A stretch of DNA of 64,000 nt. Source: Reyranellaceae bacterium. GTDB lineage: Bacteria; Pseudomonadota; Alphaproteobacteria; Reyranellales; Reyranellaceae. The position numbers and the translations under genes are program-made. Below are positions 29,140 to 31,091 of this stretch, piece by piece (within the stretch, counting starts at the first letter, position 1; each line of letters starts with the position of its first letter). The stretch is from contig JALHMM010000016.1 in NCBI GenBank assembly GCA_022844045.1, positions 19,806 through 83,805 of the forward strand. The letters run 5' to 3'. Below the pieces are notes generated by a model. That model saw only the letters and a program-made list of their open reading frames with translations. It made no database searches and was not told the origin of the DNA.

Positions 29140-29943
29140 CTAGTCGCCGCCGATCGGTATGCCCATCGCGACCGCCTGGGCATGCACCTGCGCATCCGGC
29201 CGGGTCGGCGCGCCCGGCGGGATGTAGAGCGTCGAGGCGGCGGACAGCTCGACCGTCGCGAGCCCGCTGATCCGGATCCAGCTGATGCGCGGCCGGCAGC
29301 CGAACTGGACGGCCGCCTCATAAACCGCGACGTGATGGGTCGGCGCGAAGAATCGCCCGAGCTTGGCGATCAGCAGCGGCATCAACGGCGTCTCGTAGCG
29401 CCCCATCGGGCTGTAGCCCTCGTTGCCGAGGATGCCGATCTGCCAGAGCACGAGCGCGCTCGCGGGATCCGTGGGCCGCTGGTTGAACAGGTAGTCGGTC
29501 GCCTCGTAGGACGAGCACCCGGTGGTCGCCGGATCGAAGCCGACATCGGCGAACAGGCAGTCCTCGGCCGAGATCCCCGGCAGCATGACGGCGGAGAATC
29601 CTTCGGCGCGGGCCTGCTTCACCGCCTCGTGCGACGGATAGACGAAGACGCCCGGGTGTCCGTAGAACACGGCGCAGACCGTCAGCCCCTCGCGCACCAG
29701 CGACAGCACGCGCTCGACCATGGCGTTGTAGGTGTCGATCCGCTTTGTTGACGACGAATAGAGCGTCTGCAGCGATTCCGACTTCTCGTTCAGCGCCGCG
29801 ATCATGTCCTCGGCGACCGGATCGCCGACGACATAGACGACGCGGTCGGCCATCCGGATCCAGGAGATCGCCTCGACCGTCATGTGGCCGACGGTGCGCA
29901 GTCCGGTGCCGACCACGACGAGCTTGCCGCGCTTGTCGGTCAT
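29140..29943 (-). CDS. tetrapyrrole-methylase-fold SAM methyltransferase of the borosin alpha-N-methyltransferase type (OphMA/SonM-like), stand-alone
   Basis: Carries KLVVVGTGLRTVGHMT, VFYGHPGVFVYPSH, MLPGISAEDCLFADVGFDP, YEATDYL, LVLWQIG and STLYIPP. These match, from memory, the methyltransferase domain of the omphalotin enzyme OphMA. The start ATG overlaps the upstream stop (ATGA). Confidence 0.8.
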   Translation of the reverse strand: MTDKRGKLVVVGTGLRTVGHMTVEAISWIRMADRVVYVVGDPVAEDMIAALNEKSESLQTLYSSSTKRIDTYNAMVERVLSLVREGLTVCAVFYGHPGVFVYPSHEAVKQARAEGFSAVMLPGISAEDCLFADVGFDPATTGCSSYEATDYLFNQRPTDPASALVLWQIGILGNEGYSPMGRYETPLMPLLIAKLGRFFAPTHHVAVYEAAVQFGCRPRISWIRISGLATVELSAASTLYIPPGAPTRPDAQVHAQAVAMGIPIGGD

Positions 29944-31091
29944 GGCGTCACCACCGGCTTGAACAGGGCTTCCTGGATCTTGCCGGGATCACCGGTCTTG
30001 AGCGCCTCGCGATACGGCTCGGGCACCTTCCGCTCCGCCATCACGGCGTCGGGATCGGCCAGGAACGCGGCGAGCAGTGTCGGGTCGCGCGCGAGTTCGG
30101 CGAGAAAGCTCGAGAGCTCGGAACGCTGCCGCTCGGGCATCACCATCTGCATCGCCTCCGCCGGATCGGCCATGGTATCCTGCCGTCGCGGCGGACCATC
30201 GTTCAGCCGCACCGTCCAGGACCACTGCAACGGTCCCGGCCCCACCGACCGTGCGCTCACCTCGACATGCAGCGTGTCGCCAGACTTGACCGCGATATCC
30301 TCCGGCAGTGGCAGCAGGAACTGCCCCCAATGCGTATCGGGCGCGTCGGGCGCGGTGCTCAGCGTCACCGCGCCGGCGAGATCGGCGGTGAACCAGGCGG
30401 CCAGCGCATTGACACGCGCGCCTCGGCCCGCCTGGAAGCGCAGGCTCGCGGTATAGGGCTTGCGAACGGTCTCGGCGCTATCGGCCGCGGCGTCGCTGAT
30501 CCAGAGCACCTGCGCGGGCGCCGCCAAATCCTCGGGGCGGACGCGCCGGCGCACCATCAGCAGCTCGTGCACCGAGGGCTCGGCGAGCGCCGACAGGTCG
30601 AGTCCGTAGGGGCGATTGAAGAAATAGAGCGTGTCGCTGCGCTGCGTCGTGCGCACCGGCGCCATCCACGCCGTGACCTTCGCGGGGATCACCGTCCCGC
30701 CCTGCTTCAAGAAGTGATCGCGCGCCCACAGCACCGGGCCGAGCATGTTCTCGTCCACGCCGACCGAGCCCATCCATTCCGAGACGATCACATCGGCCTT
30801 CTCGGCGAGCTGGATCGAGCGGATATCGGCCTGCACGATCTGGATCACGCTGGCGAAGCCGTTGGCCGCGACGAGTTGCGCCGCAGCCTGCGCGGCGGCG
30901 CCGCGTTCCACCGCATAGACGCGGGCGGCGCCGGCCTTGGCGGCGAACAGCGACAGGATACCGCTCCCGGCACCGACATCGACGACGACGTCACCCGGCT
31001 TGATCGTTGCCTCGATGGCCCGGCGGAAGGCATCGGTGCGCGCTTCGTCACGCACCATCAGGCGGTGGGTAGGCAGAGTGTCGTAGTTCAT
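29940..31091 (-). CDS. protein arginine N-methyltransferase (PRMT, type I-like) homologue with about 65-aa C-terminal borosin-leader-like helical tail
   Basis: Start at MNYDTLPTHRLMVRDEARTDAF, preceded by gggaga. PRMT motifs: VVDVGAGSGILSLFAAKAGA (motif I), VYAVE (post-I), IVSEWMGSVGVDENM (double-E loop), THWGQ (THW loop). The tail LAELARDPTLLAAFLADPDAVMAERKVPEPYREALKTGDPGKIQEALFKPVVTP follows. Confidence 0.8.
   Translation of the reverse strand: MNYDTLPTHRLMVRDEARTDAFRRAIEATIKPGDVVVDVGAGSGILSLFAAKAGAARVYAVERGAAAQAAAQLVAANGFASVIQIVQADIRSIQLAEKADVIVSEWMGSVGVDENMLGPVLWARDHFLKQGGTVIPAKVTAWMAPVRTTQRSDTLYFFNRPYGLDLSALAEPSVHELLMVRRRVRPEDLAAPAQVLWISDAAADSAETVRKPYTASLRFQAGRGARVNALAAWFTADLAGAVTLSTAPDAPDTHWGQFLLPLPEDIAVKSGDTLHVEVSARSVGPGPLQWSWTVRLNDGPPRRQDTMADPAEAMQMVMPERQRSELSSFLAELARDPTLLAAFLADPDAVMAERKVPEPYREALKTGDPGKIQEALFKPVVTP

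Follow-up and report, generated by a model that had tools for sequence, protein, structure and literature searches.

Why would a bacterial gene cluster encode an enzyme of the protein arginine methyltransferase (PRMT) type that ends in a tail resembling the leader of a borosin peptide and overlaps the start of a borosin-type peptide methylase gene? The question is raised by a 64,000-nucleotide stretch of DNA (hereafter the window) from a Reyranellaceae bacterium (assembly GCA_022844045.1, contig JALHMM010000016.1, positions 19,806 to 83,805 of the forward strand), for which a first-pass annotation made from the letters alone had described such a protein. The open reading frame (ORF) in question, at window positions 29940-31091 (-), encodes a 383-aa protein, which we call PRMT-BBD for its PRMT-fold domain and its C-terminal borosin-binding domain (BBD), and it stands within a run of five same-strand genes encoding an AraC-family regulator, a repeat protein, PRMT-BBD, a peptide α-N-methyltransferase (NMT) and an S8 subtilase. 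The analysis described here confirms, at the level of sequence comparison, that the tail is a homologue of the BBD of the borosin precursor SonA, and it leads us to propose that PRMT-BBD is docked on the NMT through this domain, with both enzymes acting on the (I/V)RPP repeats of the protein encoded upstream, a proposal to which we give an even chance of being correct.

A gene call made independently for this metagenome contig (JGI 3300002461, NCBI LNFM01, from an activated-carbon metagenome) also places the start codon at 31091, and the M-x-Y start is common to all PRMT-BBD homologues. A 410-codon ORF with a start at 31172 was rejected, since that start falls inside an intergenic hairpin and both the homologues and the independent call use 31091. 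Residues 1-305 (30177-31091, -) form a PRMT-fold methyltransferase domain, made up of a Rossmann part that binds S-adenosylmethionine (SAM) and a β-barrel with its arm, as judged from Pfam, PDB matches, alignment, AlphaFold2 and Foldseek, and the domain contains the motifs THRLMVRDEARTDAF, VVDVGAGSGILSLFAAKAGA, VYAVE, SEWMGSVGVDENM and THWGQ. The Pfam model PRMT_C, which represents the PRMT-specific barrel and oligomerisation subdomain, matched residues 168-307 at 52.2 bits, the gathering threshold being 27; the protein also has matches to several Pfam families of generic class I methyltransferases. When PRMT-BBD was compared with all PDB sequences using phmmer, the top matches were exclusively PRMTs, with PRMT6 at 3e-40 and PRMT8, PRMT1, PRMT2, PRMT3 and CARM1 at 1e-39 to 1e-29, in an alignment that runs from residue 3 up to roughly residue 280. 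The AlphaFold2 model, for which 49 homologues were used, had a mean predicted local distance difference test score (pLDDT) of 90.8, and its top Foldseek matches in the PDB were PRMT6, CARM1, PRMT2 and PRMT8 (E ~1e-32, target-normalised TM-score 0.75-0.84, about 320 columns). Together, these data agree with the first-pass annotation in calling the protein a PRMT homologue, the motifs that it listed lie where it had placed them, and the domain is not a generic class I methyltransferase devoid of the PRMT barrel or THW region (PRMT_C, phmmer and Foldseek).

The catalytic residues point in the same direction. SAM motif I (VVDVGAGSG) and VYAVE are present, and in the 49 full-length homologues D38, G40, G42, G44 and E62 are invariant, as are S104-E105-W106 and E114-N115 of the double-E loop and T253-H254-W255-G256-Q257 of the THW loop. 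In the phmmer alignment the double-E loop SEWMGSVGVDENM pairs with the PRMT6 loop VSEWMGYGLLHESML, and THWGQ pairs with THWKQ of PRMT6. The invariance of the SAM glycines, E62, the double-E residues and the THW residues across these homologues indicates that the active site is under selection. At the N-terminus (MNYDTLPTH), the YFxxY helix is reduced to one tyrosine, Y3, which is at least 90% conserved and which, mapped to PRMT1, we take to be the second tyrosine of that motif. The best reading of these conserved motifs is that the domain is a catalytically competent methyltransferase whose target would be arginine. The NCBIfam models for PrmA and other equivalogs scored far below their cut-offs (TIGR00406, 37 bits against 183), and the labels "L11 methyltransferase" and "RNA methylase" in the databases are thus unsupported. 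The first-pass annotation had also taken PRMT-type enzymes to be regarded as essentially eukaryotic, with bacterial members rarely discussed, but they are not rare in bacteria: PRMT-type proteins gave 929 matches among 8000 scored candidates, and at least 492 stretches in a collection of bacterial and archaeal contigs with one genome per species encode relatives. Loci that encode relatives are designated L001 and so on, and the best 80 of these at least 492 stretches all come from metagenome-assembled genomes. Tailed versions are present in Paracoccaceae, Allosphingosinicella, Nitrosospira and Burkholderiales. A collection of 5.8 billion proteins yielded about 48 full-length tailed homologues with 41-61% identity, and bacterial PRMT-like proteins without the tail, about 315 aa long, numbered in the hundreds.

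The remainder of the protein comprises a flexible linker of residues 306-324 (30120-30176, -), in which pLDDT falls below 50 at residues 311-318 and in which length and sequence vary among homologues; a five-helix domain of residues 325-375 (29967-30119, -), assigned as a BBD from AlphaFold2, the SonA matches, Pfam and HMMER; and the last 8 residues, LFKPVVTP (29943-29966, -), which are predicted to be disordered and may be a short core or else a vestigial tail whose end overlaps the start codon of the NMT. In the AlphaFold2 model the helices span residues 325-335, 337-345, 347-353, 358-366 and 369-375, with pLDDT of 87-96. SonA is the precursor of a Shewanella split borosin, and its BBD is a five-helix bundle of residues 1-53 that supplies most of the binding to the methyltransferase SonM (PMC8429565, PMC10549244). 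When the last 70 residues of PRMT-BBD were searched as a single sequence against the PDB, the seven best matches were all SonA, with the whole BBD aligned at a marginal E of 0.012, and a profile of 31 tails matched SonA end to end at 1.4e-8 (37.5 bits), the next matches being a LigA-like domain (0.009) and OphMA residues 322-375 (E 0.2). Pfam LigA weakly matched 24 of the 31 tails (best 1.6e-4). The N-terminal IniB model gave a sub-threshold match, which leaves an IniB-type leader relationship unsupported, and the NHLP/Nif11 leader models gave no match, either in Pfam at E<=1 with the 31 tails or in NCBIfam at E<=0.01 with the full protein. The borosin-leader-like character that had been claimed for the tail is therefore upheld by the SonA profile match, and the tail itself had been quoted correctly, but it is 60 residues long counted from SELSS and not about 65. 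The resemblance that had been seen to the helical segment of OphMA is real but weak, the proper match being the SonA BBD, whereas the suggested likeness to NHLP/Nif11 leaders found no support, with Pfam offering weak LigA matches only.

When 1.84 billion representatives were scanned in full with HMMER, the module of the window tail appeared in several settings, namely SonA-like precursors of 68-100 aa, proteins with multiple BBDs, BBD-NMT fusions, PRMT fusions and one stand-alone protein. The SonA-like precursors have hydrophobic cores such as VFLVI, FIVIIAY or VVVVVV 12-18 residues past the conserved isoleucine. The stand-alone BBD (P0250, 70 aa), 51% identical to the window tail, has a polar end (FEGNSSRE) and no recognisable core, and thus the BBD module exists also as a free polypeptide.

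The gene that follows PRMT-BBD encodes a 267-aa NMT of the SonM/OphMA type (29140-29943, -), identified from Pfam and PDB sequence matches (TP_methylase 1.7e-20; dbOphMA 6e-58, OphMA 2e-53, SonM 2.6e-48). It contains YGHP (in FYGHPGVF) and DCLFAD (in SAEDCLFADVG), the signature motifs for detecting borosin clusters, and it has no BBD of its own. The PRMT-BBD stop codon overlaps the NMT start as ATGA (...ACG CCA TGA CC), and such a stop/start overlap is found in eight of the nine tailed loci including the window, as ATGA in L001, L002, L003, L005, L085 and L088 and as TGATG in L086, with a gap at this boundary in L087 only. The translational coupling that had been proposed from the window sequence is thus repeated in seven of the eight other tailed loci. 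In several loci a GGAG-like ribosome-binding site for the NMT is located within the last codons of PRMT-BBD.

The arrangement around this boundary is conserved. The order repeat protein, PRMT, BBD, NMT recurs in the related loci examined from Alphaproteobacteria, Betaproteobacteria and Acidobacteriota: a repeat protein is encoded directly upstream of the PRMT gene in nine of nine related loci with upstream DNA (L001-L005, L016 and L086-L088; L085, truncated by the end of its contig, has none), and an NMT directly downstream in ten of ten as well as in the window. The identity of these NMTs is 64-78% in L001-L003, L005 and the L085 and L086 contigs, and 61-65% in L004 and L016. The BBD itself changes sides: it lies at the C-terminus of the PRMT in the window, L001-L003, L005 and L085-L088, and in L004 and L016, both from Acidobacteriota, an untailed PRMT is paired with an NMT that has a homologous BBD at its N-terminus. 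Seven BBD-NMT fusions of 344-358 aa were present among the NMT homologues, and in the AlphaFold2 model of one of them, the natural fusion P0192, both domains fold, the BBD forming five helices at residues 2-60, the linker is disordered and the predicted TM-score is 0.64. In this clade each PRMT-NMT pair has one BBD, and the DNA order is constant while the position of the stop and start codons alone shifts. In the more distant loci L007, L021, L035 and L040, an untailed PRMT is followed by an NMT without a BBD, which implies that the NMT there must use a substrate in trans.

The candidate substrate is the 494-aa repeat protein (31208-32692, -), called as a putative precursor from the gene call, the GC content at third codon positions (GC3) and synteny. 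It matches no Pfam or NCBIfam family; its reading frame has a GC3 of 0.82, as in the neighbouring genes, and is conserved in divergent genomes. Other long ORFs over the repeat DNA (31090-32778 +, 31157-32542 + and 31858-32439 -) have lower GC3 and are unconserved, and were rejected as artefacts of the GC-rich repeats; their translations are rich in Ser/Gly/Ala/Thr or in Arg/His/Gln. The protein contains a conserved leader-like motif, VERHVIYRIDSATNQVVGIESLDPATGKREEMPM (32471-32572, -), defined by alignment and a hidden Markov model, followed by an acidic Tyr/Asp repeat region of 202 aa (31862-32467, -; GYDPY/GYDPN units, 49 Tyr, 31 Asp) and a basic Arg/Pro repeat region of 217 aa (31211-31861, -; LIRPP, LVFPIRPP, LVRPP and VLVVRPP units, 30 Arg, 29 RPP, 37% Pro). 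The latter is a candidate target for both the PRMT domain and the NMT. The first-pass annotation had considered the R-P-P repeats plausible substrates, and synteny strongly backs that suggestion, both through the nine loci just described and through clusters that have Arg/Pro precursors and no NMT. The model of the leader motif found 13 ORFs in 12 loci, three of them outside its training set. Against the 5.8-billion-protein collection it gave one match at E<0.01, a partial 79-aa Longimicrobium protein, although a 46-residue profile is underpowered for a collection of this size and the match count is no gauge of the size of the family.

The two halves of the repeat protein are also matched in charge. 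Across 11 precursors (window, L001-L005, L015, L016, L023, L086 and L088), the counts of acidic and basic residues are near 1:1 (31 Asp and 30 Arg in the window; 19/18, 15/15, 22/21, 25/24 and 17/17 in others), and they correlate at r = 0.89 (0.99 when L088 is left out). Such a match suggests that the halves co-evolve for charge pairing, for example for self-neutralisation of a cationic peptide or for an assembly driven by Tyr and Arg.

Starting from what is shown above, namely the domain identities, the conserved catalytic motifs, the synteny, the exchange of the BBD between neighbouring genes and the coupling, we infer the physical docking, the two targets and the order of events as follows. 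The BBD of PRMT-BBD would dock onto the SonM-like NMT made from the coupled next gene, and since PRMTs and borosin NMTs are both families of obligate homodimers, the likely product would be a two-methyltransferase complex, (PRMT-BBD)2(NMT)2. The substrate would be the protein encoded immediately upstream, in which the PRMT domain would methylate the guanidino group of the single arginine of each (I/V)RPP repeat and the NMT would methylate backbone amides of the flanking hydrophobic residues, and the S8 peptidase would then cut off the leader and the acidic Tyr/Asp part. In its effect this would be similar to a class 2 borosin, in which BBD and core come separately, except that here a second tailoring enzyme would contribute the BBD and may also deliver the substrate to the NMT. 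A number of points weigh against this reading. We know of no characterised borosin with backbone methylation of an (I/V)RPP(L/V) sequence. RiPP cores (those of peptides that are made by the ribosome and modified after translation) are typically variable, and the variability of the PRMT-BBD tail is consequently no evidence against its being a core. Type 0 borosins carry their core between BBD and NMT, and the linker of L004 and L016 could likewise be a core of the protein itself. The AlphaFold2 models of PRMT-BBD and P0192 are uninformative about contacts between domains or proteins and about packing of the BBD on the NMT. Three tailed loci have no S8 gene in the immediate neighbourhood, and the leader motif is missing from three precursors (L001, L086 and L088). 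Finally, variants of SonA with deletions in the linker and helix 5 are still methylated (PMC10549244), and the shortness of the PRMT-BBD tail thus does not by itself keep it from the NMT active site.

These last considerations bear directly on the main rival explanation, in which PRMT-BBD would itself be a borosin precursor of type IV (class 3) with a very long extension at its N-terminus, the BBD presenting the last 6-8 residues of the same protein (FKPVVTP) to the NMT for methylation and the S8 peptidase releasing a short N-methylated peptide. Enzyme-core fusions are a hallmark of borosins, the fungal OphMA being a single-use fusion of enzyme and substrate, and in SonA-type precursors, as would be the case here, the core comes after the BBD. 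The tail past the invariant Ile372 is of strikingly constant length, 10-11 residues in 39 of the 49 homologues; however, the ribosome-binding site of the overlapping NMT gene provides an alternative reason for a fixed length, and the tails, of which YEAEKDA, FETGGVA and MLRS are examples, are short and unconserved, consist mostly of polar residues and lack the hydrophobic β-branched stretch of the stand-alone BBD precursors. Polar and acidic cores do occur in type III and type VII borosins, and a segment of 25-35 residues separates the BBD from the NMT in L004 and L016, as in type 0 borosins. The window protein stops at the equivalent of SonA residue 61, short of the positions of L63 and I65, which are methylated in SonA, although we give this point less weight in view of the SonA deletion variants and the tolerance of SonM for loss of the BBD-core linker. 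Against a core at the tail there are, further, the existence of a coreless stand-alone BBD (P0250) and the need of the BBD-less NMTs of sister clusters for another substrate, and with such a core neither the repeat protein, always adjacent, nor the intact PRMT active site would have a part to play. On this balance we regard a core at the end of PRMT-BBD as unlikely. The first-pass annotation had offered both options, a docking tail and a tail that is itself a core; the swapping of the BBD between the C-terminus of the PRMT and the N-terminus of the NMT favours the first and makes the second the less likely.

The same swapping could be read in a more neutral way. The BBD may be a mere structural accessory of the NMT, as it is in class 2 borosins, that came to lie on the PRMT through a moved stop codon, with the two enzymes acting independently on the repeat protein and the tethering being without function. 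Such a history would fit a BBD that is found before the gene boundary in some loci and after it in others, the sister clusters work without any BBD, and the linker between PRMT domain and BBD is long, variable and disordered. Yet the fusion has been kept in about 48 sequences with 41-61% identity from both Alphaproteobacteria and Betaproteobacteria, and a BBD that binds the NMT in the manner of SonA and SonM would tether the PRMT regardless of selection; we find a functionless fusion improbable.

The link between the PRMT and arginine-containing repeats extends beyond the tailed clade. Untailed PRMT homologues adjoin precursors that have Tyr/Asp repeats and one arginine per proline-rich repeat; arginine and proline are all that the four repeat variants beside PRMT homologues have in common, and the PRMT is the constant partner of the arginine-containing repeats, the S8 peptidase being alongside in most, not all, loci. 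Full-length S8 homologues with 43-49% identity adjoin PRMT genes in L003, L016, L015, L023, L030 and L009. In L023 the repeats are of the type TLPRVT, with S8 and AraC genes, and the AraC regulator, 49% identical to that of the window, is encoded upstream of the precursor. That the PRMT-like domain leaves the arginines of the repeat protein unmethylated and acts on another protein, a free amine or a small molecule, or is a non-catalytic scaffold, appears very unlikely to us: we found no characterised bacterial member of the family in the searchable literature, the source databases label homologues as L11 methyltransferases or RNA methylases and the eukaryotic YFxxY helix is reduced to a single conserved tyrosine, but invariance extends to both glutamates that bind the guanidinium, to the THW loop and to the SAM motifs, the PrmA-model scores lie far below their thresholds and the gene travels with Arg-per-repeat precursors in four enzyme contexts.

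Several of the untailed loci have further features of their own. L015 (218-8942) contains radical SAM, ThiF, YcaO, S8 and PRMT genes with Cys repeats of the CIVRPPC/CRPPC type; L011 (4368-8939) contains YcaO, a nitroreductase-type dehydrogenase and a PRMT with Cys-containing repeats; and L009 (1523-3310) has Cys-rich repeats of similar type and an S8 gene. In the precursors of these three loci the Cys repeats (CIVRPPC, CRPPCNPPC) come after the same Tyr/Asp region. L030 (379-5050) has YcaO, S8 and PRMT genes, and no precursor was recognised at the locus. In L007 (2231-4666), L021 (4964-7555 -) and L035 (5138-5800 -), an S8 peptidase is fused to FPTRPT/FPTRPTLPT repeats and then GYEDPY repeats, and these fusions adjoin an untailed PRMT and a BBD-less borosin-type NMT, with a LanC-like protein in addition in L007. 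A further locus, L006, from an Egibacteraceae metagenome-assembled genome, encodes two tandem PRMT-like paralogues (7812-8942 and 9055-10206) with an N-terminal leader-like motif, VEKHFIYQMNAATNQVLKAEEIDPTTRERKEV; inspection by eye placed two ABC-transporter-like genes and a large lanthipeptide-synthetase-like gene beside them, and a separate repeat protein was not seen at this locus. As a Rosetta-stone sign, this fusion of leader and PRMT hints at an interaction of PRMT and precursor through direct recognition.

The remaining genes and features of the window cluster are as follows. Its first gene (33069-33602, -) encodes the 177-aa AraC-family regulator (Pfam HTH_18 4.8e-24; gene call). The subtilase (S8) peptidase of 491 aa (27654-29129, -; Pfam Peptidase_S8 8.6e-39; gene call) has no visible signal peptide and is, from its family and position, a candidate leader or propiece protease. 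Between the precursor stop and the PRMT-BBD start lies a perfect 14-bp GC-rich hairpin, CGCCGCCATGGCCC-UAGG-GGGCCAUGGCGGCG (31149-31180, -), within a 124-nt intergenic region that folds at -62.8 kcal/mol (z = -3.4). The hairpin has no T-tract and is no canonical terminator. It may be an attenuator or an mRNA-stabilising element that gives excess precursor transcript; excess precursor mRNA is known from other RiPP operons. A scan of 27300-33800 for terminator and promoter consensus sequences gave nothing above the expectation from shuffled sequence. The flanks of the cluster encode a Fic-domain protein (23101-24270 +), an AAA_16/AAA_22 ATPase (35414-36607 +), a NYN-domain protein (36835-37509 +) and a MipA-like outer-membrane protein (34268-35215 -), and no transporter, exporter or obvious immunity gene adjoins the five genes.

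The cluster looks like a new pathway of peptide modification and, if the proposed roles are right, would give bacterial PRMTs a specific candidate substrate, with one arginine per proline-rich repeat, and partner enzymes. A leader-type recognition domain would serve the assembly of enzymes. The combination of Pro-Pro, backbone N-methylation and methylarginine would yield peptides with almost no backbone NH, and a scarcity of backbone NH groups is sought for membrane permeability and protease resistance. The near 1:1 balance of Asp and Arg between a Tyr-rich and an Arg-rich half is unusual in itself. We offer, tentatively and with more doubt than confidence, a wider generalisation in which bacterial PRMT homologues would be the class-defining enzymes of undescribed ribosomal peptide pathways: the precursor would combine an acidic Tyr/Asp "antidote" with an equal number of arginines in (I/V)RPP repeats like those of the peptide Bac5, the PRMT would install methylarginine, a borosin NMT, YcaO or LanC would be optional, a subtilase would release Pro/Arg-rich, largely NH-free peptides that might target the ribosome as the proline-rich antimicrobial peptides of animals do, and in the borosin branch the BBD would have been repurposed as a docking module between enzymes, bringing two methyltransferases into one complex. 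On this wider reading bacterial PRMTs would have a first physiological role, and eukaryotic arginine methylation a concrete ancestral context.

Parts of this picture have precedents. That bacterial PRMT homologues occur in operons for peptide secondary metabolites was already noted by Aravind and colleagues (PMC3417536), and predicted PRMTs of Legionella are listed in the literature as of unknown function. No PRMT-BBD architecture is described in the searchable borosin and RiPP literature (main texts and supplements, with Cho et al. 2022, Biochemistry, excluded). What we consider new is accordingly the placement of the BBD, the PRMT as a co-tailoring enzyme and an undescribed precursor family, the bacterial PRMT homologues themselves being known. 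The window protein is about 30% identical to the eukaryotic type I enzymes (PRMT6, PRMT1/8, PRMT2, CARM1) throughout its catalytic core and barrel, and it has in common with them the double-E loop, the THW loop and a methionine equivalent to M48 of PRMT1. CARM1 prefers proline-rich contexts, and the arginines of the window's candidate substrate are likewise in such a context. In contrast to these enzymes, the window protein is bacterial, lacks most of the YFxxY helix, carries a BBD and is encoded in an operon with peptide-modifying enzymes.

The basic segment of the repeat protein also brings to mind the cathelicidins, whose cationic peptide is synthesised together with an anionic pro-region and set free by a serine protease. 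With 37% Pro, 14% Arg and PIRPP occurring ten times, it is similar to Bac5/BSN-37, proline-rich antimicrobial peptides of mammals, Bac5 being RFRPPIRRPPIRPPFYPPFRPPIRPP (PMC7736402), and PIRXP motifs are essential in Bac5(1-17) (PMC6973051). The window segment is different in its 217-aa length and in having no obvious cleavage sites, and the similarity is one of likeness only, as repeats defeat a test of homology; we treat it as a lead.

Among borosins, the closest system is SonM/SonA of Shewanella oneidensis (type IV, class 3), which likewise has an NMT of about 265 aa without a BBD and a five-helix BBD on the polypeptide of an adjacent gene. The SonA BBD, however, is the leader of a 70-aa peptide and is followed by a linker and a hydrophobic core, whereas the window BBD is the C-terminus of a 320-residue PRMT-fold enzyme and is followed by 8 mostly polar residues, and a separate repeat protein is the likelier substrate. 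In the class 2 split borosins (types V-VIII, RceM/RceA), the BBD is off the substrate and a separate precursor has many near-identical repeat cores, and they are thus a precedent for a BBD-bearing NMT working on a separate repeat precursor. Their BBD is fused to the NMT, as in L004 and L016 (though N-terminal there), whereas that of the window is on an unrelated second methyltransferase, and the window repeats, rich in Arg and Pro, follow a Tyr/Asp region of matching charge. A fusion of a BBD to a GNAT acetyltransferase is mentioned as an unusual architecture in the RODEO survey of borosins (bioRxiv 10.1101/2024.01.09.574750), and it resembles PRMT-BBD in having the BBD on a tailoring enzyme other than the NMT and differs in the class of that enzyme; the main text and text supplements of that survey contain no PRMT, PrmA or arginine term. 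In the published borosin classes the BBD is carried by the NMT, by the substrate or by both, or is absent, and a BBD on a second tailoring enzyme, as proposed here for PRMT-BBD, would be a fifth borosin arrangement.

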